The notes under the pieces are model-generated. The model was given only the letters and a program-made list of their open reading frames with translations. It was not told where the DNA came from and did not search any database. 32,000 bases of DNA, taken from NCBI GenBank assembly GCA_902623995.1, contig CACNWE010000002.1, forward strand, positions 203,282 through 235,281. The letters run 5' to 3'. This DNA is from an uncultured SAR116 cluster alpha proteobacterium (lineage in GTDB: Bacteria > Pseudomonadota > Alphaproteobacteria > Puniceispirillales > Marisalimonadaceae). This document shows, piece by piece, positions 604 to 19,543 of the stretch; position 1 is the stretch's first letter, and each line of letters begins with the position of its first letter. The position numbers were made by a program, and so were the translations under genes.

Positions 604-2484
604 TTAAACGTTAATAATTTTTAATAAACGATTTACCGCTTCGTCAACTGTTTCTGTTTTAGTTTTAATATGTACATCCGGATTAGTTGGTATTTGGTAA
701 GAACTTCCAATACCAGTAAAATTTGGAATTTCACCTTTCCTTGCTTTTTTGTATAACCCTTTAGGATCTCTTTCTTCAGCTAATTCAAGTGGAGTGTCAA
801 TAAATATTTCAATATATTCTTTTTCTTCAAATAATTCACGTACCATTTCCCGCTCAGCTCTGAAAGGAGAAATAAAAGCAGAAATTACAACGATTCCAGC
901 ATCTACCATTAGTTTTGCAACTTCACCAATTCGTCTTATATTTTCAACTCTATCTGCGTTTGTGAAACCAAGGTCACTATTGAGGCCATGACGGATATTG
1001 TCACCATCTAAAATATAAGTGTGAATACCTTTTGCATATAATTTTTTCTCGAGTGCGTTAGCAATAGTAGATTTTCCTGAGCCAGAAATTCCTGTAAACC
1101 ACAGAACTTTGCTTATATGGCCCTTAAGTTGATTCCGTGCTTTCTTGTCAATATCAAGTTTTTGTTGATGTAAGTTATTAGCACGACGGAGTTCAAATTC
1201 TATCATGCCTGCCGCTACAGTTTGGTTGCTTATTCTATCGATTAATATAAAAGCACCTAGTGGTGGGCAGACATGATATTTTTCAAAAGCTATAAGGCGA
1301 TCAGTTTTGATTGTTACAACTAAAAGGTCATTGAGCTCTAATTGTGTTGCTGAAAGATTCTCAAAATTATTAATATTTATCTTGTGCTTTATTGATGTGA
1401 TATTAGCGTTAACTAATGTAGTACCTAATTTCAACCAAAAATTACGACCAAGATAACCGGGGTTTTGATCCATCCATACTAATGCAACTTGAAATTGGTC
1501 TGAAACTTGACATGGGTCGTCAGCCGCTACTATGACGTCTCCTCTGGATGCATCAATTTCTTTGTTAAGAGTAAGAGTTATGGATTTTCCTTGCTCTGCA
1601 CTTTGGAGTTTATCTTTAAACAATATAATATCCTTAATTGTTGCTATTTCACCTGATGGTAAAACTTTAATTGATTGACCAATATTAACTCTACCAGCCT
1701 CAATCATACCTGAAAAACCTCGAAAATTTGAATCATAGCGGTTAACCAATTGAACAGGAAATCTTAGTGGCTGATCAACAGCGGTTGATCTAGTTTCAAT
1801 AGTTTCTAAATAATTTAAGAGCGTTGGTCCTTCATACCAATTCATGTTATCAGATGAATGAGTAATATTATCTCCTTTTAATGCTGAAATTGGAATTGTG
1901 ATTACGTTTTGAAATTTAAGTGAACTAGAGAATTCTTTATATTGTTCAGATATTTGATCATAAGTAATTTGCTGATAATCCACTAAATCCATTTTATTTA
2001 TTGCCACAACAATATTTTTTATACCTAAAACTGAACAAATAATTGAATGACGACGCGTTTGCTCAAGTATACCTTGTTGTGAGTCGATTAAAATTATTGC
2101 TAACTTAGCTGTTGAAGCACCAGTTATCATATTTCTTGTGTATTGTTCATGTCCAGGAGTATCTGCAACTATAAATTTACGATTCTCTGTAGAAAAATAC
2201 CTGTATGCAACATCGATTGTTATACCCTGCTCTCTCTCGGAAGCTAATCCGTCGACTAAAAGAGCAAAATCAATATTATTTCCTTGGGTACCAATTTTTC
2301 GTGAATCAGATTGAAGTGATTTTATTTGGTCTTCAAAGATCACTTGAGCCTCAAAAAGCATTCTTCCTATAAGAGTACTTTTGCCATCATCAACACTACC
2401 ACAAGTTATAAATCTCAAAGTATCAAGTTTGGCTTGTTTGCTGAGATACTGATTAACCTCACTAACATAGGTTAATTTAGTCAT
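604..2484 (-). CDS. cysNC: Bifunctional sulfate adenylyltransferase subunit 1 / adenylylsulfate (APS) kinase (CysN-CysC fusion, NodQ-like)
   Basis: GTPase motifs [21 protein letters not shown] and NKMD in the N-terminal two thirds. The C-terminal APS kinase has P-loop [11 protein letters not shown]. The ORF track starts at TTG 2490; the ATG at 2484 (MTKLTYV...) is the likelier start, 2 nt after the cysD stop. Confidence 0.9.
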
Positions 2485-2486
2485 CT

Positions 2487-3986
2487 TCAAAAATATCCTT
2501 CTTGTTTTTTTATTTCCATTGAAGCAGCATTATCTACATCTATGGCTCTTCCCTGACGTTCACTAATATTTGTACTTAAAATTTCCAAAATAATGGCTTC
2601 AAGATTATTAGCTGAAGATTCAATTGCTCCGGTCAAGGGGTAACAACCAAGTGTTCTAAAACGAATTCTTTTTATTTTAATATTCTCATTAGGCTTTAAA
2701 GGAAAACGATCATCATCTACCATTATTAACATATTATCACGATTTACAACCGGCTGTTCATGTGCAAAATAAAGTGGTACAATTGGAATATTTTCACGAT
2801 AAATATATAGCCATACGTCAAGTTCTGTCCAATTTGAGATAGGAAAAACACGAAGGCTTTCATTTTGGTTTTTCTTTCCATTATATAAAGACCAAAGTTC
2901 AGGACGTTGATTTTTGGGATCCCAGCGATGAGAGGAAGTTCTAAATGAAAAAACACGCTCTTTTGCACGACTTTTTTCCTCATCTCGTCTTGCTCCTCCA
3001 AAAGCAACATCAAAATGGTAATGTTCTAAAGCTAATTTTAAAGATTGTGTTTTCATTATGTCTGTATGTATGGAAGATCCATGATCAAAGGGATTGATAT
3101 TTTTATCAACACCCTCTTGATTAACATATACTAACATATCCATTCCTACTTCTTTTGAGATATAATCACGAAAGTCATACATTGCTTTAAATTTCCAGCG
3201 TGTGTCTATGTGCAGAAGTGGAAATGGTGGTGGATTTGGATAAAATGCTTTACGTGCTAAGTGTAACATAACAGACGAATCTTTTCCAATTGAGTATAAC
3301 ATAACAGGATTGTCTGCTTCTGCCATAACTTCTCTTATGATATGAATAGATTCAGATTCAAGTCGGTCTAAATGGGTCATTTTAGTATTGGATGAGTTTA
3401 TAAAATTATGATTGGTTGTTTCTAAGATATCTGAGTAGCCATGTGAATACATTGCAAGCTCAACACAAATAGAAGATTCAGGTAAATTAATTAATTTTTT
3501 TGCATGATTTTTTTTTAAAAACTTACGTAAAAATTCAACAAGCTTACCGGATGGCAAAATCTGAATATCTCTTTTCTCAAATTGTGCAATTGCTACAAAT
3601 GCTTGTTTAAGCGTTTCATATTTTACACTATTAGTATTTAACTTTATCCAGAAACGATTTTTATCATAATCGTTTAATCCAAGGATAAACTCTTTTGATT
3701 TATGATTAACTATTTGAGCAAATAAGATTAATTTTTCTGATTTTCTTGCACATTTGATTTGTTGTTCAAGTACTAACTGTTTAGCTTTTCTACCATGTTC
3801 ATCCACTATTGACAGATTATCGAGTGGATTAAAATTTAGTTCACTTTTATTTATAGCTTTTTCAATCCTTTTGAGTAAAATTTTAGGATTATCTTTAAAT
3901 ATTTCTTGAGAAATTTCTTTAGTTGTAAATAGAGAAAAGTTGGGATAACTTTTTAGCCACTTTGATATGATTTGAGTATTTTCCAT
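2487..3986 (-). CDS. cysD: Sulfate adenylyltransferase subunit 2 (CysD/NodP) with an uninterrupted ~202-aa N-terminal extension of unknown function
   Basis: Canonical CysD begins at internal Met203 (ATG at 3378-3380 on the minus strand): [18 protein letters not shown]...[15 protein letters not shown] (PAPS-reductase-like SxGxDS loop). That leaves ~297 aa to the stop, the normal CysD size. The upstream 606 nt have no stop codon despite the extreme AT content. Confidence 0.9.
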
Positions 3987-4286
3987 GTTAAAACCAAAAT
4001 AAATATTTTCTTAAGATAATTCCGATTAAGTTAAAATACACACAAAGCTTTATTTTTCAATAGCCAAAAAGAAAGGATAAATAATTTCTATTATTTTAAA
4101 GATTATTACTTGATTAGAATTTGAAAATTATAAGGGATTTTTGGAAAGTTTATTGAGTTAATACTTAAATTTATATTAACATGTTGAAATTTTTTTAGCT
4201 TTAAAATTTCAAAAAACTTTGTTACTGATTATTTGTTAAATTAGTCTTATTCATAAATCATTTAAAATAAATTAATTGTAAATAAA

Positions 4287-5306
4287 ATGACGAAAAATAG
4301 TTTCAATGTATTTGTAATAACTCGTTTTGGTATTGGGCAAAATTCAAAAACTTTTTATGATCGTGAAATTCCTTATTTGGAAAACCTATTAATAAGATCA
4401 ATATTAAAACAAAAAGAATTTATAACTAAGTGGATTATATTAATTGATGTAAAAACTCCAAAATTTGTAACAGAAAAATTAAAAAAATTAATCCCCAAAG
4501 ATATCCTATTCATTTATGCACATGATGTTTTTTTATCAGGCTCTACTATGCCTAATATCACATCAATTTTGAAAAATTTGGGTATTAGAAATAAGGATAA
4601 AGTTGTTACAATTAGAGTGGATGCAGACGACATACTTTCTAACGATTATATTTCATCAGTTTTAGACGTTATAAATATTCAAAAACAAAGAAATAAATAT
4701 GATTTGATCTCTGTTGACGCAACTATAGGGATATATTTTTATCCAATACGAAATAAATTAGTAAAGGTTTTTAGAAAAAATTACAGCATTCAAGCACTAT
4801 ATTCAATTTTTGGCAGTAGTTTCAAATCTGTTCATGATGGAGGAGGTCATGGCGGGTTAGAAAAAATGGTGTTAAAGAAGGGTGGTATTTACTATCAGTT
4901 AAATAATAAAGAATTTTGGATTAGGTCTATGAGGCAACATTCGGTCTCACAATTAGGCATAAAGTTTAATGTTTTATTTGGTAGATACGAAATTATAAAA
5001 AATATTATGAAAATTTTATTAAAAAAAATTTACAATAGTAATACCTTTTACAAAGGAAGAGTGAGTGTAAAGGAATTATCCAATCGTTTCGAAATATCAG
5101 AAAAAATTGTATCTTTATTAAATTTACAGGAACAAAGTTTAGAAATAAAACAGACAGTCTTTTCACCTTTAATAAAAAAAGTTATGAAAGATAACAAAAA
5201 TAGAAATAGAACAAAAATTCAACAAGTTTTATTGAAAATGTATAAAAAAGAAAAAAGCAAAACTGCAAGAGCTAAAATAAAAAAAGAATTTTATAATTTT
5301 TATTAA
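4287..5306 (+). CDS. GT-A-like glycosyltransferase (resembles the 'putative rhamnosyl transferase' family) with a Lys-rich C-terminal tail
   Basis: N-terminal VFVITRFGIG, then SILKQKEFITKWIILIDVKTP, and a DxD-like TIRVDADDILSNDY. This pattern recalls the TRF...RLDxDD layout of that family. Recognition is from memory only. Confidence 0.5.
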   Translation: MTKNSFNVFVITRFGIGQNSKTFYDREIPYLENLLIRSILKQKEFITKWIILIDVKTPKFVTEKLKKLIPKDILFIYAHDVFLSGSTMPNITSILKNLGIRNKDKVVTIRVDADDILSNDYISSVLDVINIQKQRNKYDLISVDATIGIYFYPIRNKLVKVFRKNYSIQALYSIFGSSFKSVHDGGGHGGLEKMVLKKGGIYYQLNNKEFWIRSMRQHSVSQLGIKFNVLFGRYEIIKNIMKILLKKIYNSNTFYKGRVSVKELSNRFEISEKIVSLLNLQEQSLEIKQTVFSPLIKKVMKDNKNRNRTKIQQVLLKMYKKEKSKTARAKIKKEFYNFY

Positions 5307-5431
5307 AGATGTCACTAATTATATATATTTATAAATATACTTGTGTATTATTATGTCAGCAATTAAACCTAAACATTTCAACAAAAAGTAATATTTTTTT
5401 ATCTCTCTAACAAATATATAGTGCAAAAAAC

Positions 5432-6562
5432 ATGAGAATTGTTCATATAATTACTGGCTTAGGGGATGGAGGTGCTGAACATACACTATACAAAATTTGT
5501 AAATACGATAATTCAAATGAACATATTGTTGTCTCGCTAAACGGACTTGATAAATATGGACCTTTATTAGAAAAATTAGGTATCAAAGTTTATTGTTTGA
5601 ATTTAACTATTATTTCTATTTATAAATTTATTTTTCTGATCAAATTAATCCGTTTGTCTAAACCGCATATAGTACAAACTTGGCTCGTCCATGCTGATTT
5701 ATTAGGAGGTGTTGCTGCTAAGTTGTGTGGTGTGGAAAATATTATTTGGAATATTCGTTACTCAAATTTAGAAATTGGCAAAGCAAAGTTTTTTACAATT
5801 ATAATAATTAATTTATTGGCAAAATTATCTTTTTTAATACCTAAATTCATTGTCGTAGTCTCTAAAAAAGCTATAAAAGTTTATGAAAAACAAGGATATG
5901 ACAAAAAAAAATTTATATTTATACCAAATGGCTATGATCTTGCAATTTTAAAACCTAATAATTTTCAAAAATCAGATTTTAGAAAAAAATATAGTATAAA
6001 AAAAGAAATACCTTTGATTGGTAATGTTGCTAGGTATGATCCAAAAAAGGGTCATTTGAACTTAATGCATGCATTGTCATTACTAAAATTAAAAAATATT
6101 AATTTTTTTTGTGTCTTTATTGGTTCTAATATAACCAAGGATAATTTAGAATTAACTTCAGAAATTGAACGACTTAGTCTAGAAAATCATGTGAAATTAT
6201 TAGGACAAAATAATAATATTATAGAAGTAATGAATGGATTAGATGTTTATGTTCATAGCAGTATTTATGGAGAAGGATTTCCAAATGTAGTTGCTGAATC
6301 TATGGCTTGTGGTACACCGTGTGTTGTAACAGATGTTGGAGATGCCTCGCTGATTGTAGGTAAAACTGGATGGGTGATTCCACCTAATAATTCAAAAAAA
6401 CTTGCTTATACAATTGAAAAAGCACTTAATGAAATTGGAAAAGAAGAATGGAATAAAAGAGTTAATAATACAAGATTAAGAGTTAAAACTAATTTTGATA
6501 TTAGTATAATGATCAAATCCTACAACACTCTATGGAGCTCTATTCATAAGAAAATGACATAA
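5432..6562 (+). CDS. Glycosyltransferase family 4 (GT-B fold)
   Basis: N-terminal MRIVHIITGLGDGGAEH and C-terminal EGFPNVVAESMACGTPCVVTDVGD (E-x7-E region) are typical of GT4 retaining transferases. Confidence 0.85.
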   Translation: MRIVHIITGLGDGGAEHTLYKICKYDNSNEHIVVSLNGLDKYGPLLEKLGIKVYCLNLTIISIYKFIFLIKLIRLSKPHIVQTWLVHADLLGGVAAKLCGVENIIWNIRYSNLEIGKAKFFTIIIINLLAKLSFLIPKFIVVVSKKAIKVYEKQGYDKKKFIFIPNGYDLAILKPNNFQKSDFRKKYSIKKEIPLIGNVARYDPKKGHLNLMHALSLLKLKNINFFCVFIGSNITKDNLELTSEIERLSLENHVKLLGQNNNIIEVMNGLDVYVHSSIYGEGFPNVVAESMACGTPCVVTDVGDASLIVGKTGWVIPPNNSKKLAYTIEKALNEIGKEEWNKRVNNTRLRVKTNFDISIMIKSYNTLWSSIHKKMT

Positions 6563-6644
6563 TAATGTAACTTATAAAATATAATTGAATTATTTATATA
6601 AATCGTTATCTTATTCACAATTCTAACTAATCAAACTTATTTTT

Positions 6645-6848
6645 ATGCCACTCATATATACATTCACTACTATAATATTAATAATTACTAGCAAAAACGC
6701 TTATGCATATTTAGATCCTGGAATGGGTAGTATGATTATTCAAGGCATCATAGCTACAATTGCCGCTACAGGTTTAACAATTAAAATTTACTGGCAAAAA
6801 ATTAAGGATTTCTTTATCAAAAAGAAAAAAAAAGATAAAAAAGAATAA
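6645..6848 (+). CDS. Small (67 aa) membrane protein of unknown function
   Basis: Signal-like hydrophobic N-terminus ending AYA, then YLDPGMGSMIIQGIIATIAATGLTI (a transmembrane helix preceded by a DPGxGS motif) and a KKKKKDKKE tail. It fills the gap between two same-strand genes. No homolog recognised. Confidence 0.35.
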   Translation: MPLIYTFTTIILIITSKNAYAYLDPGMGSMIIQGIIATIAATGLTIKIYWQKIKDFFIKKKKKDKKE

Positions 6849-6911
6849 GTCTTTATTTAGTATAGTAATTAATTTATTTGATATTTATAAATCAATCTGA
6901 CAGTTAATATC

Positions 6912-8045
6912 ATGTTTAAATTTATAAAAAATATTATAAATGAGTTTAGAGATTTATTATCTTCTTTAAACATATTAGTTGATACAAAAAATACAAAACC
7001 AAAAATCATCTTTTTTTCAGAAAACAAAGTTTATCAAAAATTTTCTAAACCATTGATTGAAATAATTCTTTCTGTCAGCTCTAACAAAATATATTATTTA
7101 AGTATTGATAAAGAAGACAAAATTCACCACAAAAAAGTAAAAAATTATTATATCAGCCCTTTTTTAATAAATTTTACATTCAATAATTTGAGAGCTGAAA
7201 ATATTTTTTTAACAATTACGGATTTAGGAAATAATTTATTAAAAAAAACAAAAAATATTGATCAATATATTTACTATTTTCATTCACCTGTAAGCACTAT
7301 TAAGAATTATACTTCTAGGGCATTTGACAATTATGATACCATATTGTGCGTTGGTCAATTTCAAATAGATGAGATAAGATCAAGGGAAAAGTCAAAAAAT
7401 CTAAAGAAAAAAAAATTAATCTCTGCTGGCTACTTATATTTTGATTACCTACTAAATAATATTAATTATAACATTAATAACAAAGAAATTTTAATAGCAC
7501 CATCTTGGAATAAAGATTTAAAAAATTTTATAAATGAAAATTTTATAGAATTGATAGAAATTTTAATTGTAAAAGGATTTAAGGTTATCTTTAGGCCACA
7601 TCCTGAACATTTTAAAAGATCAAATAAAATATTACTAGGTATGAGAAATAAATTTTCAAATAAAAATTTTAAATTAGATGCTGATGACAACAATTTAAAA
7701 TCTATGGAAAAAGCAAGATGTTTAATAACGGATAGCTCTGGCATAGCAATTGAGTATATGATTGTTATGAAAAGACCAGTTTTATATCTTGACGAGTATG
7801 ATAAAATTCATAATTCTGAGTTTAGAGAACACTTAGGAAAAAAAGTGTTAGATCATGATATTAAGAAAAACTTTGGTTACATGTTTAAAAAGCATGATTT
7901 TAATAAAATTGATTTTATTATTAATGACTCAGAAAAAAAATTAGTAAAAAAAATGTCAGCACTAAATAATTTTATTAAAAAGAATTATTTTTATTTTGGA
8001 AATACAAAAACTTATTTATTTTCATATTTTAAAAAAAACATATAG
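6912..8045 (+). CDS. TagF/TagB-like CDP-alcohol phosphotransferase (CDP-glycerol glycerophosphotransferase family)
   Basis: Family-typical motifs EILIAPSWNKD (cf. LYAPTxR), VIFRPHPEH and LITDSSGIAIEYMIVMKRPVLYLDEYD (cf. LITDYSS...P.I.F..D). It lies directly upstream of the phosphonate operon. Confidence 0.65.
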   Translation: MFKFIKNIINEFRDLLSSLNILVDTKNTKPKIIFFSENKVYQKFSKPLIEIILSVSSNKIYYLSIDKEDKIHHKKVKNYYISPFLINFTFNNLRAENIFLTITDLGNNLLKKTKNIDQYIYYFHSPVSTIKNYTSRAFDNYDTILCVGQFQIDEIRSREKSKNLKKKKLISAGYLYFDYLLNNINYNINNKEILIAPSWNKDLKNFINENFIELIEILIVKGFKVIFRPHPEHFKRSNKILLGMRNKFSNKNFKLDADDNNLKSMEKARCLITDSSGIAIEYMIVMKRPVLYLDEYDKIHNSEFREHLGKKVLDHDIKKNFGYMFKKHDFNKIDFIINDSEKKLVKKMSALNNFIKKNYFYFGNTKTYLFSYFKKNI

Positions 8046-8100
8046 ATATTTAGTCAATTTAAGTTTAAAAGTAATTGGTTTAATAACAATTATTAGAATA

Positions 8101-9402
8101 ATGAAAAAAAAAATTGCATATGTTGGTATGTCTGCCGACATTCTTCACAAAGGTCACATTAATATCTTAAAAACTGCCAGTAGATATGGTGAGGTATATG
8201 TAGGATTGTTAACAGATCAAGCAATTGCAAGTTATAAAAATATCCCATATTTAGACTATGAAAAAAGAAAAATAATCCTTGAAAATATAAAATATGTTAA
8301 GAAAGTTGTTCCACAGTTAACCCTAGATTATGTCGAAAATCTTAATCTAATTAAACCTGATTATGTAGTTCATGGTGATGACTGGAAAATTGGTATTCAA
8401 AAGGAAACACGAAAAAGGGTGATTAACACTATAAAAAAGTGGTCCGGTAAGCTTATAGAGCCAAAATATACAGAAAAAATATCATCTACGTTAATAAAAA
8501 AAGAAATGTCAAATTTAATTACTTCGCCTGAAAATAGAATTTCAAGATTAAAACGATTAATGAGCTCTAAAGATATTGTTAAAATATTAGAGTCTCATAA
8601 TCCTCTTACTGGTCTAATAATAGAAAAAATTAATGTTAAAAAAAACAAAAAAACAATAGAGTTTGATGGAATGTGGTCATCTAGTCTAACTGACTCTGCT
8701 ACAAGAGGTCTTCCAGATAATTCTTCTTTATCTTTCTCTGCCCGTATCTCTTCATTAAATGATATGATGGATGTGACAAGTAAGCCAGTTGTTTTTGATG
8801 CAGATAACGGTGGTCAAATTGAACACTTACCTTTTTTAATTAGATCTTTAGAAAGATCTGGTGCATCAGCTATAATAATGGAAGACAAAGTAGGTTTGAA
8901 GAAAAACTCACTATTTAAAAATCAAAAAGACACTAAACAAGATAAACCTGAATTATTTGCAAAAAAAATAAAAAAAATATGTGATTTGCGTCAATCTAAA
9001 GATTTTATGGTTATAGCTAGAATTGAAAGTTTCATAATTGGTAAAGGTTTAACTGATGCCATAAAAAGAGCAGACATATATTCCAAAGCTGGAGCTGATG
9101 CTATTTTAATTCATAGTAAAGAGAAAACACCGGCAGAAATATTCTCTTTCGCTAAAGAATTTAAAAAAAGTAAAAATTTTATTCCGTTAGTTTGTGTTCC
9201 TTCTACTTATTCTAAAGTAAAGGAAGATGATTTGATAAAACATGGATTTAAATTAGTCATATATGCTAACCAACTTCTAAGAGCTGCTTACCCAGCAATG
9301 CAAGAGACTGCAAGAACGATTTTGAAAAATCAAAGAGCATTTGAAGCTGATAAAAAAATAATACCAATCAATGAAATAATAAACTTAATTAAAAATGATT
9401 AA
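8101..9402 (+). CDS. pepM: Bifunctional cytidylyltransferase / phosphoenolpyruvate mutase (Fom1-like, PntC-Ppm type fusion)
   Basis: The N-terminal ~135 aa carry HxGH (ADILHKGHINIL) and YTEKISSTLI, as in TagD-type cytidylyltransferases. The C-terminal domain has FDGMWSSSLTDS, FDADNGG, the PepM-diagnostic EDKVGLKKNS (EDKxxxxxNS), ARIES and GADAILIHS. The ORF track extends to 7996, but that part overlaps the upstream gene; ATG 8101 (MKKKIAYVG) is the sensible start. Confidence 0.9.
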   Translation: MKKKIAYVGMSADILHKGHINILKTASRYGEVYVGLLTDQAIASYKNIPYLDYEKRKIILENIKYVKKVVPQLTLDYVENLNLIKPDYVVHGDDWKIGIQKETRKRVINTIKKWSGKLIEPKYTEKISSTLIKKEMSNLITSPENRISRLKRLMSSKDIVKILESHNPLTGLIIEKINVKKNKKTIEFDGMWSSSLTDSATRGLPDNSSLSFSARISSLNDMMDVTSKPVVFDADNGGQIEHLPFLIRSLERSGASAIIMEDKVGLKKNSLFKNQKDTKQDKPELFAKKIKKICDLRQSKDFMVIARIESFIIGKGLTDAIKRADIYSKAGADAILIHSKEKTPAEIFSFAKEFKKSKNFIPLVCVPSTYSKVKEDDLIKHGFKLVIYANQLLRAAYPAMQETARTILKNQRAFEADKKIIPINEIINLIKND

Positions 9403-10492
9403 AGTTGAAGAACTAATAAACATTTTTAAAAAAAATAATAGTAATTTTTTTACAGGTGTTCCAGACAGTGTTTTAAAAGAATTGTCATCGTTTCTTCAAA
9501 GTAAAAATAAAAAAAACCATATTATTGCTACCAGCGAAGGCTCAGCTGTGTCAATTGGTATAGGTCATTACCTGTCTAAAAAAGAGATACCAATAATTTA
9601 TATGCAAAATTCTGGGCTTTCAAATGCATTAAATCCTTTAATATCAATGGCACATGATAAAGTTTATTCGATACCATTAATTTTAGTGATTGGGTGGAGA
9701 GGTTCACCAATGCTTAAAGATGAACCCCAGCATAATGTAAAAGGTATGATTACTGAACAACTTTTAAAACTATTAAAAATTAAATACACTATTATAAGAT
9801 CGCCTGCTGACTTAAATAAATTTGATAAACAAATTAAACTTGCAAATAAAAATAAAACTATTGTTGCCTGTTTGATTGAGCAAGGCACCTTCCAAAAAAC
9901 TAAAATAATTAACAAAAAAGATTTTTATGCACTAGAAAAAGAATTTTTTTTTAAAACCTTGCTCGAAAACATTAATATAAAGACAAAAATAATCTCAAGT
10001 ACTGGCTATAATTCTAGAGAACTAATGTACTTTAGAAAAAAATATAAGCTATTTCATGGTAGAGATTTCTACATGGTTGGTGGTATGGGTCATACTGCAT
10101 CCACAGCACTTGGTTATTCTTTGTTTTCACAAAACACAACATTATGTATAGATGGTGATGGGTCATGTTTGATGCATCTTGGATCAATTAAAACTGTAGG
10201 TATGTTTGCAAGTACAAATTTTAAATATATTCTTTTAAATAATAACTCACATGACTCTGTAGGCGGTCAACTTACTTACGCGAGCGAAATTGATTTTGAA
10301 AAATTAAGTATCAGTCTTGGCTTTGAAAAGTATTATTGTATCGACAATCAATATAAGTTGGAAGATAAAATTAAGGAATTTTTATCAGAAAAAAATCTTA
10401 GTTTCCTTGAAGTAAAAATAGCAAATTGTAAAATTAAAGAATTACCCCGACCATTAAATTTTATTAAAATTAAAAACGATTTTATGGAATAA
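9395..10492 (+). CDS. ppd: Phosphonopyruvate decarboxylase (thiamine-diphosphate dependent)
   Basis: ThDP-binding motif GDGSCLMHLGS...LNNNSHDSVGGQ. The ~365 aa size is typical of Ppd. The start overlaps the pepM stop (ATGATTAA), implying translational coupling. Confidence 0.85.
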   Translation: MIKVEELINIFKKNNSNFFTGVPDSVLKELSSFLQSKNKKNHIIATSEGSAVSIGIGHYLSKKEIPIIYMQNSGLSNALNPLISMAHDKVYSIPLILVIGWRGSPMLKDEPQHNVKGMITEQLLKLLKIKYTIIRSPADLNKFDKQIKLANKNKTIVACLIEQGTFQKTKIINKKDFYALEKEFFFKTLLENINIKTKIISSTGYNSRELMYFRKKYKLFHGRDFYMVGGMGHTASTALGYSLFSQNTTLCIDGDGSCLMHLGSIKTVGMFASTNFKYILLNNNSHDSVGGQLTYASEIDFEKLSISLGFEKYYCIDNQYKLEDKIKEFLSEKNLSFLEVKIANCKIKELPRPLNFIKIKNDFME

Positions 10493-11596
10493 ATGATAAA
10501 TACAACAAGTGAAATTACTAATTACTTAGATAATGATTCCTATAAAAAAATATTCATTTTATGTGGAAAAAAATCTTTTACATTTTCTGGTGCAGAAGTA
10601 TTTTTTAAAAATATATTAAGAAAAAAAAAGATTAAAATTTTTTATAAAAGATCAGAAATACCTGACTTTAATGAATTAGTTTCAATAATAAAAATTATTA
10701 GAAATTTCAAACCAAATTTAATTTTAGCCGTAGGTGGGGGTGCAGTATTAGATTATGCAAAAATTGCTAATGTTGTTGATATAAAGTCTAATTTAGTAGA
10801 CTTAATTTCTAATTATTCATACCCTTTTGAAAATAAATATACAAAATTAGTTGTTATTCCCACTACAGCAGGATCTGGGGCCGAAATCACTTCCAATGCT
10901 GTTATTTATGTTGATGGTATAAAACATTCATTGGAAAGTGATCTATTAATACCTGATAAATTCTTTTTAATTCCAAATTTTTTGATTTCTGCACCATTTA
11001 AAGTCAAAGCATCAGCGGGCTTTGATGCTATTGCACAAGCTTTAGAGTCCTTGATTTCAAAAAAATCTACGTTGGAAAGCATAGAGTACGCATCAAATTC
11101 ACTCAAAATTTCAATTGATTACTATTTTCATTATTTAAATAATACAAATCTTAAAAATGCATCAGAAATGAGTTTAGCTGCAAATTTAGCTGGAAAGGCA
11201 ATCAGTATTTCAAAAACAACAGCACCACATGCAATATCATACCCTTTTACCTTTTTATTTAATATAAGTCACGGACATGCAGTAAGTTTATTTTTTGAAA
11301 AAATTTTTAAGTATAATTATTATAATTTAAGTGAATCGGATACTCAATTTGATCTAGAGAAAAGATTTGAGCTTATTTTTGATTTGCTAGAAGTTAAAAA
11401 TATAAAAGATTTTATTTCAAAAATTATTTCAATAAAAAAATATGCTAGGCTAGAAGATAATTTGACTAAGTTAAATATAGATATTGAAAAAAGCTCAGAA
11501 AAAATTATTGGAGGAATAAATTTTTTAAGGCTTGGAAATAATCCTATTAAATTAGATGATCAAAAAATTTATAAAATTATTACAGATCGAATGTAA
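10493..11596 (+). CDS. Iron-containing (group III) alcohol dehydrogenase; predicted phosphonoacetaldehyde reductase giving 2-hydroxyethylphosphonate
   Basis: AVGGGAVLDYAKI, PTTAGSGAEITSNAV and conserved His residues (APHAISYP, SHGHAV). The ATG directly abuts the ppd stop (TAAATG). The Fe-ADH family call is firm; the substrate is inferred from the pepM-ppd context (FomC/PhpC/Pdh precedent). Confidence 0.75.
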   Translation: MINTTSEITNYLDNDSYKKIFILCGKKSFTFSGAEVFFKNILRKKKIKIFYKRSEIPDFNELVSIIKIIRNFKPNLILAVGGGAVLDYAKIANVVDIKSNLVDLISNYSYPFENKYTKLVVIPTTAGSGAEITSNAVIYVDGIKHSLESDLLIPDKFFLIPNFLISAPFKVKASAGFDAIAQALESLISKKSTLESIEYASNSLKISIDYYFHYLNNTNLKNASEMSLAANLAGKAISISKTTAPHAISYPFTFLFNISHGHAVSLFFEKIFKYNYYNLSESDTQFDLEKRFELIFDLLEVKNIKDFISKIISIKKYARLEDNLTKLNIDIEKSSEKIIGGINFLRLGNNPIKLDDQKIYKIITDRM

Positions 11597-11678
11597 TCGA
11601 AAGTCTAAAAAAGTAATTTAAAAAATTATAAAGATCTAACGTGGTTAATTGTTTCTATTAAATAATTATTAAAGAGAG

Positions 11679-13412
11679 CTAATCTGACAAATCATATGAT
11701 CTTATATCAAACAGTGCTTTTCCTTTATCCTTACCACTTACTATAATACCGTCATAAACGTTTGCACCGCCTACAACAGATTTATATCGATCAAAGAATT
11801 TTCTTTCTACTTTTAACTTGTCAAATAAATTTTTATTATTCGTTATTTTAGCTAAAATGGCAGGAATAATATCTTGTGTGATCATGATATTGACGTCACT
11901 ATTTGAAATATCTTCAGGCCAGTAAATACTTAAAAAGGTACCATATCTGTCTTGTATATCGTACTTATTTATTTCATTGATATCATAATTTTCAAGAGTA
12001 TGACAATTTTTGGTCAGATAAGGGCCATGATCACTTAAAAGAACAATTATAGAATTTTTATCATTTTTTTTAATATTTAGAACATCATTTCTCATTTCTG
12101 TATTAGCTATTTTCATTCTTTCGAAATATGAATTCTTTTCATTTATGTTACATTTTCCGCTGTTTTGTGAATGGCCAGGAAATTTATTATGAGTAAAAAA
12201 TAGTGACTTTTTTTTCTCTGATCTTAAATAATCTTTTTTTAAATTAAGATAATTATTATAATTAAAGTCATCATCAAATATGTCAAATCTGAATTGACCT
12301 TCAAAAATAGCTTTTGTAAGAGTTTTACCTCCAATTTTAGTGACATCCTCTTTAGGATGATAATTATCCCATTTTATAGGTGATGAACTAAAGAAATAAG
12401 GAGATGTAAATATCGCTGATGTTTTATACCCGTTTGCTTTAAATATATCTAATCCTAGGGCATTACCAGATGTATAATGTCTTCCATCACGATTGATTTC
12501 ACCTTGCATTTCAAGAATTCTAGAGATAGCACCTATTGATAACGCGCTATTAGAATATGTTCCATGATAAATTTTGAAACCATTATTTTCTAAAAATTTA
12601 ATATGTTCTTTATTATCGAATCCATAATGATCCAGTGTTTCCAAGTTTGCATATGATTCATATCCCAATATATAAATATTCTTATCTTTAATAATTTTGT
12701 TATTTTTATTTTTCAAGAATTCTAAAAGTTTAGGGTTTTTTTCAAGATATTTTGATTTATGTAAAGAAATGTTATTAAAATTAATTATTATACCACTCAC
12801 AGTAAATAATATTGCGCTTACGTAAGCTATTTTTTTATTAAATAAAAAAAATCCATACATTATTAAAAACAAAATAACTATATATAATCCCTCCATTACA
12901 ATTTGAATGGTAAATATATCATCACCTGGGTTATGTTTATTAGATATTTGAGCCATATTTAATACAGTAAAAGTCAGAGTAAGTCCTGAAAACATCAACA
13001 TTTTCAATGATGCAAAGTAGCTAAAAATTATAGGTAAAATAAAACTAAAAATTAAAATAAAAAATAAAGTAGTACCGAATAGATGAATCAAACCGTTTAT
13101 ATTAAGGTATTCGCTATTAATTATAGAATAATCAAAGACTGGTGACATGGGTAAGATTATTAGGATTAAATCCTTAGTTTCTGGTAAATCTATTTTATTT
13201 TTAAATTTAAAATCTTTATTAAACAGTAAATAAATTATGTAAATAATCATTAAAAATATTAAAGCTAATATAATAATTTTTGAGCCCAATAATAAAAATT
13301 TAGTATTAAATCCCTCTGGAAATAAAAATCTCATTGCAGTCATGCTAAATAGAACAAAAATTGAACTGACGATTAAATCTAAGATAAAATTTGTTTGAGT
13401 TTTTATTTGCAT
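11679..13412 (-). CDS. Polytopic membrane protein with a C-terminal alkaline-phosphatase-superfamily domain (LtaS/EptA/OpgB-like phospho-headgroup transferase or hydrolase)
   Basis: About 6-7 hydrophobic helices in the first ~240 aa, then a soluble domain with NIYILGYESY (metal ligand region), GTYSNSALS and LLSDHGPYL (DH metal ligands). No C/S-x-P-x-R formylglycine motif is present. The ORF track starts at TTG 13481; ATG 13412 (MQIKTQT...) is likelier. Confidence 0.65.
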   Translation of the reverse strand: MQIKTQTNFILDLIVSSIFVLFSMTAMRFLFPEGFNTKFLLLGSKIIILALIFLMIIYIIYLLFNKDFKFKNKIDLPETKDLILIILPMSPVFDYSIINSEYLNINGLIHLFGTTLFFILIFSFILPIIFSYFASLKMLMFSGLTLTFTVLNMAQISNKHNPGDDIFTIQIVMEGLYIVILFLIMYGFFLFNKKIAYVSAILFTVSGIIINFNNISLHKSKYLEKNPKLLEFLKNKNNKIIKDKNIYILGYESYANLETLDHYGFDNKEHIKFLENNGFKIYHGTYSNSALSIGAISRILEMQGEINRDGRHYTSGNALGLDIFKANGYKTSAIFTSPYFFSSSPIKWDNYHPKEDVTKIGGKTLTKAIFEGQFRFDIFDDDFNYNNYLNLKKDYLRSEKKKSLFFTHNKFPGHSQNSGKCNINEKNSYFERMKIANTEMRNDVLNIKKNDKNSIIVLLSDHGPYLTKNCHTLENYDINEINKYDIQDRYGTFLSIYWPEDISNSDVNIMITQDIIPAILAKITNNKNLFDKLKVERKFFDRYKSVVGGANVYDGIIVSGKDKGKALFDIRSYDLSD

Positions 13413-13566
13413 AAATTTCAATATGTAGTTATTTGTTTTGAATATATGATATGTATTATTTATTCCATATAACAACAACAACAGATTAATAACATAAAGT
13501 TAAAATATTTTACTTACAATTTAAAAATTGTGAAACATTACTTACACATTTGATTGAAATTAAACA

Positions 13567-14691
13567 ATGAAACATATTTTATTTATTGCTGCTGATGCTG
13601 ATTCTTTAATTAATTTCAGACTTCCTTTGATAAAAAAAATATTGTCTAGAGGTCACTTGGTAAGTGTTGCATCGCCAATAAATAAATCATCAAAATTTTT
13701 ACAAAAAGAACTTCAAGATATTGGAGTTAGTTTTCATATATTTAAAGTTTCACGAACAGGTTTGAATCTTTTTAAGAATTTTAAATCTTTATTAGAGATA
13801 TACAAAATTATTAAAATTACAAATCCAAATATAATAATTTCTTATATGGCTAAACCTGTAATTTACACAGGCTTAGTATTAAAAATTTTTAAAAAAATCT
13901 CGTATTATCCTATGATTACCGGTATAGGCTATGGTCTCTACGAAAAAAAATCATTCAAACATATGATACTAAAATTATTAATCAAAAATTTATATTATTT
14001 TTCTTTGAAAAGTGCAAAAAAAATAATATTTCAAAATGCTGATGACCAAACATTATTTAGAAAATTTAAGATAATAGATAAATATAAAATATCAGAAATT
14101 GTAAATGGTTCTGGTATTGATTTGAAAGCTTACCCGTTTTCAAAATTACCTAAAAAACCAATATTTTTAATGGTGGCAAGATTACTCATAGATAAAGGAG
14201 TTAGAGAATATGTAGAAGCTGCAAAGATTGTACGTCTTCAATATCCTAATGTGATTTTTCAATTAGCTGGTAACTTAGACGAAAATCCTGCAAGTATTCA
14301 CTTAAAAGAATTAGAGAAATGGATTCATCAAGGAGATATTTTGTATTTAGGAAAATGTAAATCAGTTCATTTAATCCTACAAAATTGTAAATTTTTTGTA
14401 CTTCCTTCTTATCGCGAAGGGACTCCTAGATCCACTCTGGAAGCGCTCTCAACTGGAAGACCAGTAATTACGACTAATGTTCCAGGTTGTAGGGAAACTG
14501 TAACGCATGGGAAAAATGGATTAATAATACCAGTTAAAGATACATTAGCTTTATCGAAGGCAATGATAAAATTGATAAACACAAAGGATGAACAAATTAA
14601 AAAAATGGCTAGAGAAAGTTTTAATATTGCAAAAGATAAATATGAGGTAAGTAAAGTCAACCAAAAAATGATACAAATAATGAACTTATAA
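13567..14691 (+). CDS. Glycosyltransferase family 4, PglA/WbuB-like
   Basis: N-terminal ILFIAADADSLINFRLPLIKKIL resembles the PglA-type N-terminus. REGTPRSTLEALSTGRPVITTNVPGCRETV is the GT4 nucleotide-sugar binding region. Confidence 0.8.
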   Translation: MKHILFIAADADSLINFRLPLIKKILSRGHLVSVASPINKSSKFLQKELQDIGVSFHIFKVSRTGLNLFKNFKSLLEIYKIIKITNPNIIISYMAKPVIYTGLVLKIFKKISYYPMITGIGYGLYEKKSFKHMILKLLIKNLYYFSLKSAKKIIFQNADDQTLFRKFKIIDKYKISEIVNGSGIDLKAYPFSKLPKKPIFLMVARLLIDKGVREYVEAAKIVRLQYPNVIFQLAGNLDENPASIHLKELEKWIHQGDILYLGKCKSVHLILQNCKFFVLPSYREGTPRSTLEALSTGRPVITTNVPGCRETVTHGKNGLIIPVKDTLALSKAMIKLINTKDEQIKKMARESFNIAKDKYEVSKVNQKMIQIMNL

Positions 14692-14814
14692 GTACATAAA
14701 CTCAAGGTTTACAAGAAATATATCAACAAAATTATTTATATTATTTACTTTATAAAAATGTTAAATAATGGATTATAATTTAAACAAAATTTTCTAAATA
14801 AGGTGCTTTTTTAA

Positions 14815-15855
14815 GTGAGTTTAATTGATATTATTTTTGGAACAGTTCCAAATAGTCTAATTTTTTTTATATTTGTGTTTGCCCTAAATATTATATGTGT
14901 TTTTTTATATAAAAAGCTAGCCTTCAGGTTTGGTATTCTTGCTTATCCAAATTTTAGAACTTTACACGAATTATCTATTCCAAGAGGTGGTGGAATAGTT
15001 TTCTCATTTAGTTTTATAGTTGGTGTATTTGTTCTTTGGTATCTAAATTTATTATCGGAAAAATTATTTTTTATATTAGGTTTGGGAGGAACAATAGCAG
15101 TATTATTTGGGTTTATTGATGATATTTATAATATAAGAGCAATTCGTAAACTTTTAATTCAAATTTGTTTAAGTGCTTGGATTTTATTTTGGTTAGAGGA
15201 TGAAATTTTTTTAAATGAACTTGGTTTGTTAGAATTTATTATGTTACCAACGCTTATGTTTTTTATAGTTTGGATAATCAATGCCTATAATTTTATGGAT
15301 GGAATAGATGGAATGGCAGCCACGGGTGCTTTTTATTTTTCAGGAGCCCTAACTTTAATTATGATTATGACTAATAATTTCTCAGAACTAACATTTTTAT
15401 TTTTCCTTTTGATGGCAAGTGTAGGTGCATTTATACTTTTCAATTGGCCTCCAGCAAATATATTTATGGGTGATGCAGGTAGTATTTTTCTAGGTTATGT
15501 TTTTGGTGCATTTATTATTATAACTGTTTTTAGAGGTGAGCTAAGTATTTGGACCTGGCTTGTAATGTTTGGATATTTTTTCGCTGATACAACGGTTACT
15601 CAAATTACAAGAATAATTTTAGTAAAGCAATATTACAAAGCTCATCGAAGTCATGCTTATCAAAATCTTGCAAGAATAACTGGCAGTCATTTTAAAATTA
15701 CCTTTTGTGTGACTGTTTTCCACGTACTTTGGTTGCTGCCTCTTACATTGTGGACTGTCAAACAACCTGAAATGGAAATATTAGCTGTTTTTTTAGCCAT
15801 CACACCAGGCTTGATAGTAGCCTATAAATATGGGCCTATATTATCATCATCGTAG
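14815..15855 (+). CDS. Polyprenyl-phosphate N-acetylhexosamine-1-phosphate transferase (MraY/WecA/WbpL family), the initiating transferase
   Basis: INAYNFMDGIDGMA and NIFMGDAGSIFLGY motifs, ~10 predicted transmembrane helices and ~346 aa. GTG start; there is no in-frame ATG near the N-terminus. Confidence 0.9.
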   Translation: MSLIDIIFGTVPNSLIFFIFVFALNIICVFLYKKLAFRFGILAYPNFRTLHELSIPRGGGIVFSFSFIVGVFVLWYLNLLSEKLFFILGLGGTIAVLFGFIDDIYNIRAIRKLLIQICLSAWILFWLEDEIFLNELGLLEFIMLPTLMFFIVWIINAYNFMDGIDGMAATGAFYFSGALTLIMIMTNNFSELTFLFFLLMASVGAFILFNWPPANIFMGDAGSIFLGYVFGAFIIITVFRGELSIWTWLVMFGYFFADTTVTQITRIILVKQYYKAHRSHAYQNLARITGSHFKITFCVTVFHVLWLLPLTLWTVKQPEMEILAVFLAITPGLIVAYKYGPILSSS

Positions 15856-15981
15856 TTGTATAAAATTTTTATATAAAAAATTATATTTAATTTCAAAAGA
15901 GTCATAGAATATCTAAAAAAATTTATAATACTATAAAATGCAAATCTTATACTTCATTTCATTAAAGGAAAAAATTTTTTA

Positions 15982-16950
15982 ATGTTACGTTCAAAAAAAA
16001 TAGCAGTTTGGGGATTGGGTAAACATGCAATCAATCGTATTTTACCTGCAATAAAAAAGGTTAATGGTTTAACATTAGTAGGAGTTTGTTCTCGAAAAAA
16101 AAATATTGTAAAAGAGTATTCAAAGATTATGGGGTGTTATGGATGGACTGATTATAATGAAATGTTAGAGAACAAAGAACTTGATATTATATATTTAGCC
16201 ACCCCAATTGGATTGCACGCAGAACATGGTAAGTGTGTGTTGTTGGCTGGCAAAAACTTATGGTCTGAAAAACCTTTAACTTGTAATCTTTCAGATACTG
16301 AAGACCTTGTGTTACTTTCACAACGAAAGAAATTGGTAATTGCTGAGGGCTTTATGTATTTATATCATAAACAATTTAAAGAAATTTGTAGTAGAGTAAA
16401 AGAAAAAAAATTTGGATTAATTAAGGAGGTTAATATTAAATTTGGTTTTCCTGAGTTAGAAAATCCAGGTTTCCGGAACAACAGAGATCTCTGTGGTGGT
16501 ACTTTGTGGGATGTTGGGAGTTACTCAATTTCAGCAGCTTTAAAATTATTTAAAAATGAAAAGGTTATAATAAAATATGTAAATAGGAAATTTTCTGAAA
16601 AATATGATGTTGATCTTGATGGTACAGTAATATTAGAATTTTCAGGAGGTGCTAAAGTAATATCAACTTGGCGTGTTGGTTCTAGCTATAAAAATGAGAT
16701 AGATATATGGGGAGATAAAGGATCACTTTACTCAAATAAAATATTTTCTAAGGTTGATGGTGACACTCCAGTTTTAAAATACAGCGACGCATATGGTGTT
16801 GAAAATACATATAAAATAGAATCGATGAATCAATTTGTAGAAATGTTTAAAAGTTTTTTAAAGTTATTTGAATGTGAAAAAAATGCTGAGCAAGAACGTA
16901 AAGATATTATGAAAAGAGCGGGTGTTATGCAGAAAATAGCTGATTATTAA
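15982..16950 (+). CDS. Gfo/Idh/MocA family NAD(P)-dependent oxidoreductase (nucleotide-sugar dehydrogenase or ketoreductase)
   Basis: Rossmann start KIAVWGLGKHAINRILPA and WSEKPL (EKP motif), followed by a C-terminal alpha/beta domain. Confidence 0.8.
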   Translation: MLRSKKIAVWGLGKHAINRILPAIKKVNGLTLVGVCSRKKNIVKEYSKIMGCYGWTDYNEMLENKELDIIYLATPIGLHAEHGKCVLLAGKNLWSEKPLTCNLSDTEDLVLLSQRKKLVIAEGFMYLYHKQFKEICSRVKEKKFGLIKEVNIKFGFPELENPGFRNNRDLCGGTLWDVGSYSISAALKLFKNEKVIIKYVNRKFSEKYDVDLDGTVILEFSGGAKVISTWRVGSSYKNEIDIWGDKGSLYSNKIFSKVDGDTPVLKYSDAYGVENTYKIESMNQFVEMFKSFLKLFECEKNAEQERKDIMKRAGVMQKIADY

Positions 16951-16960
16951 TTAATATTTA

Positions 16961-17000
16961 AGATTTAAAAAGATATAAAAAAATATAAAAAAATATAAAA
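16961..17000. repeat. Four tandem 10-bp A-tract units (AGATTTAAAA AGATATAAAA AAATATAAAA AAATATAAAA) in helical phase; likely intrinsically curved DNA upstream of the cupin gene
   Basis: Read directly. The last two units are identical and the first two differ by 1-2 nt. The array lies between the stop at 16950 and the ATG at 17026, followed by a strong GAGGGAG Shine-Dalgarno at 17012-17018. Confidence 0.7.
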
Positions 17001-17025
17001 TCTTGTATTTTGAGGGAGATATTAA

Positions 17026-17466
17026 ATGAAAAAATGGCAAGATATTAAATTAGATGACGAGACTATGTGGCCAAAGGAAGGTCTTGTAAAACTTGATCGT
17101 CCACATGTTGACGATCGTGGTTTTATACAAAATCTTGTGAATTTCCCTATGAAAAATATTTCATTAATTTCTTCAAAAAAGGGATCTATACGCTCTAATC
17201 ATTATCATCTTACTGATTGGCATTATATGTATGTATTGTTTGGATCTTTTGATTATTATTACAAACCAACAAACAGTGATGTTGATTTAAAATGTATACG
17301 AGTAAAAAAAGGTGAAATGATATTTACTCCACCTATGGAAGATCATGCTACATTTTTTTTAGAAGATTGTAATCTATTAGCTATGAGTCGTAATCCGAGA
17401 GATCAGAAAACATACGAATCAGATACACGAAGAATAATTTTGATTTCTCCAGAAGATTTAAAATAA
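17026..17466 (+). CDS. RmlC-like cupin; NDP-4-keto-6-deoxy-sugar epimerase or 3,4-ketoisomerase-like
   Basis: 146 aa, with VDDRGFIQNL and SIRSNHYH as in small sugar-nucleotide cupins (FdtA/QdtA/RmlC-like). The stop overlaps the next start (TAATG). Confidence 0.6.
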   Translation: MKKWQDIKLDDETMWPKEGLVKLDRPHVDDRGFIQNLVNFPMKNISLISSKKGSIRSNHYHLTDWHYMYVLFGSFDYYYKPTNSDVDLKCIRVKKGEMIFTPPMEDHATFFLEDCNLLAMSRNPRDQKTYESDTRRIILISPEDLK

Positions 17467-18716: not shown

Positions 18717-18746
18717 ATACAAATAAGCTTGAAGTGGAAACCTGAA

Positions 18747-19418: not shown

Positions 19419-19543
19419 ATCAAATCATAATTTGTAGATTTTAAAATAATTATTTTTAAAATATTTATGTTGAAAAATTCTCTGTTGTTAATGATGATAT
19501 TGATTTTTATAATTTCTTTTACTTATAATTTTAGAGTAACAAT

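Follow-up and report, generated by a model that had tools for sequence, protein, structure and literature searches.

The DNA considered here, called the window throughout, is a 32,000-nucleotide stretch of contig CACNWE010000002.1 from an uncultured SAR116 cluster alphaproteobacterium (assembly GCA_902623995.1), and positions 8101-11596 hold a conserved, horizontally shuffled cassette of three phosphonate genes. The best reading of the cassette is a predicted route from phosphoenolpyruvate (PEP) through phosphonopyruvate (PnPy), phosphonoacetaldehyde (PnAA) and 2-hydroxyethylphosphonate (HEP) to HEP activated with cytidine monophosphate (CMP-HEP). The cassette is flanked by genes for a TagF-like transferase and an EptA/LtaS-like membrane enzyme. 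We propose, with a probability of roughly 60%, that the cassette makes CMP-HEP, that the TagF-like enzyme uses it and that the EptA/LtaS-like enzyme relocates the transferred group. Within about 7 kb (6645-13481) a predicted CMP-HEP donor would thus stand beside a candidate transferase, which makes HEP attachment to marine polymers testable.

The three-gene cassette and its predicted product

The three closely packed open reading frames (ORFs) lie on the forward strand at 8101-9402, 9395-10492 and 10493-11596. A first-pass annotation, made from the letters alone, had described them as a cytidylyltransferase (CyTase) fused to a PEP mutase, a thiamine diphosphate (ThDP) decarboxylase and an iron-dependent alcohol dehydrogenase (ADH), and Pfam and NCBIfam searches confirm this content. 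The junctions it gave are also exact on direct reading: the fusion and decarboxylase genes share 8 nt, ATGATTAA, at 9395-9402, and the decarboxylase and ADH genes abut at 10490-10495 (TAAATG). Its stand-alone three-gene operon does not survive: seven genes run in one direction across 4287-11596, and the cassette supplies the last three. From first to last, the spacings between them are 126, 82, 63 and 55 nt, followed by the 8-nt overlap and a gap of 0. A scan of 4000-14000 found no terminator after the cassette, and promoter-like sites in the same interval were fewer (64) than in shuffled sequence (79); both scans are uninformative at 25% GC. Direct and inverted repeats, sought beside the cassette as insertion scars, yielded AT-rich chance matches only.

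The first gene (8101-9402, +) encodes a bifunctional, Fom1-like protein, with the CyTase at approximately residues 1-140 and the PEP mutase (Ppm, or PepM) at approximately residues 145-433, on the strength of Pfam, NCBIfam and PDB matches. The protein comprises 433 aa counted from the ATG at 8101. Its longest open frame begins at TTG 7996, but the start at 8101 is preferred because homologues are 431-437 aa long and because it leaves no overlap with the preceding gene (end at 8045). Pfam places PEP_mutase at residues 150-408 (E 2.6e-50) and CTP_transf_like (PF01467) at residues 11-134 (E 3.9e-14). The mutase domain scores 371.3 bits against the PEP mutase model TIGR02320, passing its equivalog cut-off of 319.55, and is 38% identical to Mytilus PepM 1m1b (E 2.7e-48). 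All nine catalytic and Mg-binding residues of 1m1b (D58, D85, D87, E114, K120, N122, S123, R159 and H190) are kept, aligning with D206, D233, D235, E261, K267, N269, S270, R307 and H338 of the window protein; the position of Mytilus G47 is Ser. The HKGH, ISST and EDKVGLKKNS motifs claimed for the protein are all found in its translation, the last at residues 261-270 as the EDKxxxxxNS gating-loop motif. The first-pass annotation had allowed for a different member of the superfamily without the Ppm catalytic residues, which the NCBIfam scores and the residue alignment together rule out. The models for methylisocitrate lyase (PrpB; 85 bits, cut-off 354), carboxy-PEP mutase (43 bits, cut-off 420) and phosphonopyruvate hydrolase (157 bits, cut-off 374) are not reached, and the first two identities are rejected on scores so far under their cut-offs.

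Over 134 aa the CyTase domain shares 57% identity with its crystallised Fom1 counterpart (PDB 5x3d; E 1.4e-49). Fom1 activates HEP with a cytidylyl group (Cho et al. 2017, as cited in PMC6697681), and by this similarity the best prediction is that the window domain likewise cytidylylates HEP, giving CMP-HEP. The domain could also be read as TagD-like, feeding CDP-glycerol to the TagF-like enzyme so that the phosphonate leaves unactivated. The glycerol-3-phosphate cytidylyltransferase model TIGR01518 does match it (E 7.7e-17), as does TagD itself (PDB 1coz), but the score of 61.6 bits falls far under the cut-off of 165.4, the TagD match (E 7.2e-11) is far poorer than the one to Fom1, and fusion of the CyTase to the mutase is constant, in loci with a TagF-like gene nearby and in loci without one. 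A TagD-like role is thus very improbable, and activation of HEP is the function we carry forward.

The second gene (9395-10492, +) encodes a phosphonopyruvate decarboxylase (Ppd), a ThDP enzyme with TPP_enzyme_N (PF02776) and TPP_enzyme_C (PF02775) domains that passes the equivalog cut-off of TIGR03297 (341.1 bits, cut-off 312.5) and whose place in the gene order agrees. The third (10493-11596, +) encodes a group III (Fe/Zn) ADH with Fe-ADH (PF00465, E 2.9e-23) and ADH_Fe_C (PF25137) domains. The first-pass annotation had assigned it to the FomC/PhpC/Pdh type; family and position fit, but the cut-off of the curated model is missed and the assignment as a putative PhpC/FomC-type reductase comes from context. 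Three observations pull the other way: the protein scores 109.4 bits against the PhpC-like model TIGR03405, whose cut-off is 423.7; its relatives are publicly named just 'iron-containing alcohol dehydrogenase'; and at approximately residues 179-186 (GFDAIAQA) a Gln replaces a metal-ligand His of the Thermotoga maritima Fe-ADH 1vhd. Among 50 cassette orthologues, 43 share this Gln; the remaining three metal ligands are retained. PhpC-type enzymes are known to diverge strongly in sequence (PMC13576164). Among related loci, which carry L numbers here, two combine an ADH homologue (33-36% identity) with a linked gene of MpnS type: L017 from SAR86 has a genuine MpnS (E 1.7e-72 to PDB 6b9s), and L018 from Woesearchaeota an MpnS-like gene. 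To our knowledge, HEP is the sole substrate of MpnS. We read the ADH as HEP-forming because of its fixed place after the decarboxylase and the linkage of its homologues to this HEP-using enzyme.

These assignments would give a four-step route. The mutase domain would turn PEP into phosphonopyruvate, and the decarboxylase would form phosphonoacetaldehyde from it, drawing the unfavourable mutase reaction onward; strong homology argues for both steps. The ADH, as its enzyme family and the strict gene order suggest, would act as a phosphonoacetaldehyde reductase and yield HEP, which the N-terminal CyTase would join with cytidine triphosphate to form CMP-HEP, as Fom1 does and again by strong homology.

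Genes that might tailor HEP further were sought in the window. Searches by tblastn with three MpnS/HEPD-like proteins gave a best E of 3.8, and the same method found no window match for PhyH, radical S-adenosylmethionine (SAM), LicD, CDP-alcohol transferase (CDP-OH_P_transf) or ManC-like genes. Pfam detected no aminotransferase, class V (PF00266) included, among window ORFs of at least 130 aa and several smaller ones, and neither a Fom3 radical-SAM gene nor an HppE-like (Fom4) gene was found in the window by Pfam and tblastn. With Fom3 and Fom4 missing from the window, a fosfomycin-like antibiotic cluster is ruled out. The earlier statement that the window holds no 2-aminoethylphosphonate (AEP) transaminase, no MpnS/HEPD and no radical-SAM Fom3-like methylase is upheld by these searches. 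An AEP transaminase or mpnS just beyond the window in the same operon, which that annotation had considered, is excluded because the low-GC island ends inside the window on both sides, at housekeeping genes (left, cysD/cysNC/hisH; right, pyrC). Since no MpnS/HEPD, AEP transaminase, PhyH or radical-SAM gene is encoded in the window, the best prediction for the product is HEP/CMP-HEP, with HEP unmodified.

HEP might instead be merely an intermediate: an MpnS, HEPD or 2-oxoglutarate (2OG) hydroxylase encoded elsewhere would convert it, and the cell surface would carry methylphosphonate or a hydroxylated product, in the manner of Nitrosopumilus and SAR11 HTCC7217. Such an outcome is lent some weight by the scope of the negative results, which cover the 32-kb window of a contig of approximately 259 kb, by the linkage of related cassettes to MpnS (L017) or to MpnS-like and more distant MpnS/HEPD-family genes (L018, L007, L013, L105), and by a PhyH dioxygenase at position -1 in 19 SAR11-type cassettes. 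In loci that do have MpnS or PhyH genes, however, only a few genes separate these from the cassette, and the window, whose low-GC island is bounded on both sides, has no MpnS, HEPD or PhyH gene; moreover, surface metagenomes contain far less mpnS than phpC (PMC9381506). We therefore regard HEP as a mere intermediate as improbable, and retain unmodified HEP as the predicted product. The first-pass claim that the operon makes cytidylyl-HEP accordingly remains the best reading of the predicted enzymology; its picture of the surroundings was incomplete, having overlooked the candidate transferases on the flanks.

Candidate transferases flanking the cassette

The gene that ends 55 nt 5' of the fusion gene, in the same direction, encodes a TagF-like CDP-alcohol phosphotransferase of GT-B fold (6912-8045, +; protein orf377), our candidate CMP-HEP:acceptor phosphonyl transferase. 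Its AlphaFold2 model (predicted local distance difference test, pLDDT, 89.7) retrieves TagF structures (3l7i, 3l7j, 3l7k, 3l7l and 3l7m) at Foldseek ranks 1-12 in the PDB (E 7e-13 to 2e-11), followed by the TagF-like capsule polymerases 8qoy and 8a0c. Sequence searches of the PDB with the same protein, single and profile, returned nothing; the fold search alone matched. The protein also lacks a PF04464 (Glyphos_transf) match at E <= 0.01 in Pfam, a point against the assignment. The PF04464 profile is matched by 27 of its 41 diverse homologues (best E 8.2e-18), drawn from a family of 1611 representative clusters. Across these 41 family members, at 24-46% identity, H124, R228 and H230 are invariant and D274 nearly so. 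By modelled fold, and by the family profile that its homologues match, the protein is TagF-like. With TagF/TarF and the capsule polymerases (3l7i, 8qoy, 8a0c), its best structural matches, it shares a GT-B core and an invariant His in each half; it differs from TagF in its sequence (about 16% identity, below Pfam detection) and in belonging to a Gram-negative host without teichoic acid.

In TagF-type catalysis the acceptor hydroxyl attacks the β-phosphorus of CDP-glycerol and CMP leaves. Because such CMP-leaving chemistry would suit the transfer of an HEP phosphonyl group to a hydroxyl, the TagF-like enzyme is proposed as the user of CMP-HEP, which we infer as the most likely single reading. 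Genomic context, fold and domain fusions suggest that HEP would be passed on unmodified, as no HEP-modifying enzyme is encoded nearby. The product would be an ester, acceptor-O-P(O)(O-)-CH2CH2OH, on a lipid-linked glycan or a lipid at the cytoplasmic face.

The domain fusions in question occur among relatives of the TagF-like protein. One protein of 1545 aa (P0326) joins Sulfatase, DUF7024, YidC-like 60KD_IMP and Glyphos_transf domains, tying TagF-like and sulfatase-like enzyme types together. YidC-TagF-like fusions recur in several more members of the family and account for the JGI name 'YidC/Oxa1 insertase' given to orf377 homologues. The TagF-like gene is itself preceded by one for a small membrane protein of 67 aa with no Pfam family (6645-6848, +), whose sequence features run …AYAYLDPGMGSMIIQGI…IKIYWQKIK…KKKK. 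This small gene precedes the TagF-like gene in every related locus examined, cassette present or absent, and tblastn matches its ORF at 51-83% identity upstream of orf377 homologues in L021, L025, L026 and L107-L110.

Converging on the 3' end of the cassette is a gene for a predicted membrane-anchored enzyme of the alkaline-phosphatase superfamily, EptA/LtaS/MCR-1-like by fold (11679-13412, -). Its open frame extends to 13481, and the deposited protein (P0121) comprises 577 aa. The AlphaFold2 model (pLDDT 85) has seven predicted N-terminal helices followed by a periplasmic domain, and Foldseek matches it to EptC 6a82, EptA 5fgn, PbgA 6xlp, LtaS 4uor and MCR-1 9nww (E 4e-7 to 6e-6). The Pfam Sulfatase score of 17.3 lies below the cut-off of 25. 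E252, S287, D461 and H462 are invariant in the family and would fit a metal and nucleophile site. Proteins of 549 aa (L022) and 507 aa (L026) encoded 3' of other cassettes have no Pfam match and show SDHG/SDHW-type motifs on reading; the TMsulf family hidden Markov model matches the L026 protein weakly (E 2.5e-6) and the L022 protein not at all. Context, fold and domain fusions suggest that the EptA/LtaS-like enzyme may move the head group to its final periplasmic acceptor.

Gene order in related loci

A scan of one genome per species found its best matches in 13 Pelagibacteraceae single-cell and metagenome genomes (60-85% identity), on which the analysis took the window to be of SAR11 origin, and more distant copies in SAR86, Paludibacteraceae, Woesearchaeota, Pacearchaeota and Marinimicrobia. 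A metagenome scan retained 80 of 204 relatives. Among cultured SAR11 strains, Ca. Pelagibacter sp. Uisw_092 has an ADH of 70% identity, and HIMB1495 has the membrane enzyme. Gene order was counted over 92 SAR11-type loci (60% identity cut-off), with denominators comprising the loci that have enough sequence. The Ppd gene occupies position +1 of the fused mutase in 69 of 71 loci, and Ppd followed by ADH is found in 49 of 51. The flanks vary between loci; three conserved genes within varying flanks indicate a cassette moving between contexts, in agreement with the horizontal-transfer picture of Acker et al. 2022 (PMC8931226).

A TagF-like gene lies at position -1 of the fused pepM in 11 of the 62 SAR11-type loci with enough upstream DNA, to which shorter contigs add partial copies. 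The loci with this gene directly 5' of the cassette are the window, L022, L025-L028, L036, L037, L044, L055, L059, L063 and L081. Copies only 31-43% identical to that of the window still adjoin a cassette (L008, L011 and L081), and in L011 the adjacency is kept though Ppd and ADH have moved 6 kb away. Approached from the other side, five of eight loci fetched by orf377 homologues alone have the cassette adjoining. The EptA/LtaS-like gene converges on the cassette in L025, L028, L029, L036 and L044. In L026, the 67-aa gene, the TagF-like gene, the cassette and a membrane alkaline-phosphatase-superfamily gene stand alone amid purine, NAD kinase and tuf-secE-nusG genes.

Several features of these loci, and of the analysis as a whole, weigh against the proposal. 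The TagF-like and EptA/LtaS-like genes also occur as an adjacent pair without the cassette, in L021, L107 and L108. Genes for NAD kinase, SpoU methylase and tuf-secE-nusG mark L026 and L108 as one chromosomal neighbourhood; the cassette is present in L026 and missing from L108, a clean presence/absence polymorphism. In a neighbour-joining tree the cassette-less TagF-like copies nest among cassette-bearing ones, and 51 of 62 cassettes have no TagF-like gene at -1. None was found beside the related non-SAR11 cassettes examined (L014-L020). The position of the cassette between the pair may just be a favoured insertion site. Finally, the proposed pathway as a whole draws on homology, gene context and fold.

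These features are what would be expected if CMP-HEP were made but the pair were an unrelated, resident SAR11 envelope module, with the donor going to some other transferase (a glycosyltransferase-like enzyme of the island, or one encoded elsewhere) or into a phosphonolipid: the pair persists without the cassette, the TagF-like protein forms no separate cassette-associated clade, and most cassettes lie in other contexts. Some of those contexts bring other CMP-donor transferases, LicD in three loci and CDP-OH_P_transf in four. The window, however, encodes neither LicD nor CDP-OH_P_transf as an alternative CMP-donor transferase, the adjacency persists for the 31-43% identical TagF-like proteins, L011 included, and the CMP-leaving-group chemistry of TagF-type enzymes is exactly that needed. 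An unrelated pair is unlikely in our estimation, and use of CMP-HEP by the TagF-like enzyme is the reading we prefer.

The pair without the cassette points to a resident SAR11 module that has another donor in those loci. A more specific form of the proposal holds that this module, comprising the 67-aa membrane protein, the TagF-like enzyme and the EptA/LtaS-like enzyme, would normally add a phosphodiester-linked group, and that the inserted HEP cassette re-programmes it to install or polymerise HEP in the fashion of teichoic acid. Polymerisation is conceivable because HEP, like glycerol phosphate, has a free hydroxyl for extension; we hold this specific form to be doubtful. Were it true, SAR11, the most abundant heterotroph of the sea, would be a major biological source of HEP esters in marine high-molecular-weight dissolved organic phosphorus, and the first transferase for a CMP-phosphonate would be defined.

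Other cassettes carry genes of their own. An MpnS/HEPD-like gene is present in one of the 92 SAR11-type loci, and additionally in L013 (just below 60% identity) and partially in L007. In L007 an MpnS-like C-terminus (6-287) stops right at the pepM start, and in L013 (6475-7806) and L105 a distant 443-aa bicupin lies two genes 5' of the cassette; SAR11 cassettes with and without MpnS/HEPD-family genes thus coexist. The PhyH-family 2OG dioxygenase of 248 aa lies directly 5' of the fused pepM in its 19 SAR11-type loci, among them L001, L006, L032, L039, L042 and L106. It is a candidate HEP hydroxylase that would give dihydroxyethylphosphonate-type products. In 25 SAR11-type loci, including L002, L005, L046, L058, L060, L066, L067, L073, L079 and L091, a short stand-alone adenosine 5'-phosphosulfate (APS)-kinase-like P-loop protein of approximately 177 aa (PF01583, E 1.4e-15) is encoded no more than two genes away from the fused pepM, and it often has a ManC-like nucleotidyltransferase-cupin of approximately 400 aa beside it.

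Known systems and the surrounding glycan island

The closest enzymatic precedent is the Fom1-Fom2-FomC set of Streptomyces wedmorensis fosfomycin synthesis (Cho et al. 2017, as cited in PMC6697681), which has in common with the cassette a fusion of a PF01467 CyTase to PEP mutase and the first steps to HEP and CMP-HEP. The window differs in lacking the Fom3 radical-SAM methyltransferase, the Fom4 epoxidase and FomD, so that CMP-HEP would not be a transient antibiotic intermediate here, and in placing its cassette in the surface-glycan island of a Gram-negative oligotroph. According to Rice et al. 2019 (PMC6697681), 23.6% of non-redundant Ppm proteins carry a PF01467 fusion, and phosphonate pathways directed to the surface as a rule include nucleotidyl activation. 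The Pnt pathways follow the same logic as proposed for the window, with a Ppm-fused CyTase activating the phosphonate ahead of surface transfer. The characterised PntC, however, is a PF12804 (LicC-like) enzyme that prefers AEP, and LicD-like transferases are proposed to follow it (PMC6697681), whereas the window locus combines predicted HEP, an HxGH-type CyTase and a TagF-like candidate transferase.

Marine pepM clusters provide the ecological parallel. In Pelagibacterales, Lockwood et al. saw pepM occur jointly with aepY and phpC, and glycosyltransferases, LicD and arylsulfatase-like genes were among the neighbours; in surface waters phpC reached 64-76% of pepM abundance, and mpnS and hepD each stayed below 1.5% (PMC9381506). 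Acker et al. reported that the clusters of Prochlorococcus SB and SAR11 HTCC7217/RS40 adjoin glycan-assembly genes, and showed protein-associated phosphonate in Prochlorococcus SB (PMC8931226). The pepM-aepY-phpC(-mpnS) clusters of Nitrosopumilus, Prochlorococcus SB and SAR11 HTCC7217/RS40 share with the window their core genes, ecology and placement in glycan regions, as well as low frequency, horizontal movement and arylsulfatase-like neighbours (PMC8931226, PMC9381506). The window is distinguished by the lack of mpnS and by a Fom1-type fusion and a TagF-like partner, which are absent from the discussion in PMC8931226 and PMC9381506; the chemical identity of the SAR11 product is not determined in those two papers.

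The product class proposed here also has precedent. Ppm-Ppd-PhpC (HEP-branch) neighbourhoods account for 8.5% of those in complete genomes, and Li and Horsman list just two HEP-branch families with isolated products, the methylphosphonate of N. maritimus and the HEP-exopolysaccharide of S. nassauensis. The exopolysaccharide of Stackebrandtia nassauensis and Glycomyces is an HEP-polysaccharide ester derived from Ppm-Ppd-PhpC (Yu et al. 2014, as cited in PMC8942020 and PMC13576164); these producers are actinomycetes. HEP-decorated polysaccharides are thus known from actinomycetes, and marine dissolved organic matter is a further source of them (Yu 2014 and Repeta 2016, as cited in PMC8942020); in that marine pool HEP and methylphosphonate esters are reported to be the main phosphonates (PMC8931226, PMC8942020).

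The novelty claimed by the first-pass annotation was overstated, as the fusion type, Pelagibacterales pepM-aepY-phpC without mpnS, and HEP-glycans had already been described (PMC6697681, PMC9381506, PMC8931226, PMC8942020). In the literature searched, no PEP mutase cluster is described with a TagF-like partner, and no CMP-phosphonate-using transferase appears. The cassette and its placement in SAR11 glycan regions are thus already documented, and the new part is a mechanistic lead rather than a new pathway. Breakdown of the HEP and methylphosphonate esters of marine dissolved organic matter by C-P lyase feeds aerobic methane production.

The low-GC island of the window, at approximately 4.2-21.5 kb, has a GC content of 22-29%, compared with 30-34% in the flanks. 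Its seven-gene string opens with a glycosyltransferase that has a weak Rhamno_transf match (4287-5306, +; PF11316, E 6e-7) and a homologue of 51% identity in a like position in the syntenic locus L028. Next comes a GT4-family glycosyltransferase (5432-6562, +; Glycos_transf_1, PF00534, E 1.8e-32), with homologues 5' of the module in L025 (75%) and L028 (64%). Beyond the cassette, 13567-21454 (+) encodes by Pfam the rest of the glycan island, including a GT1, a WecA-like GT4 initiating transferase and a PglF/CapD-like dehydratase. Sugar-modification genes at 15982-19418 (+) comprise a Gfo/Idh/MocA oxidoreductase, a 146-aa cupin-like ORF, a TylC3-type C-methyltransferase (Methyltransf_13/14) and a PIG-L deacetylase; from their predicted functions, the acceptor may be an amino sugar that is branched or methylated. 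At the left edge of the island, 604-3986 (-) encodes cysD and a fused cysN/cysC for synthesis of 3'-phosphoadenosine 5'-phosphosulfate (PAPS). Because assimilatory sulfate reduction is generally missing from SAR11, these genes may serve glycan sulfation. The cysD ORF carries approximately 200 additional residues at its N terminus, ahead of the PAPS_reduct domain (residues 226-453).

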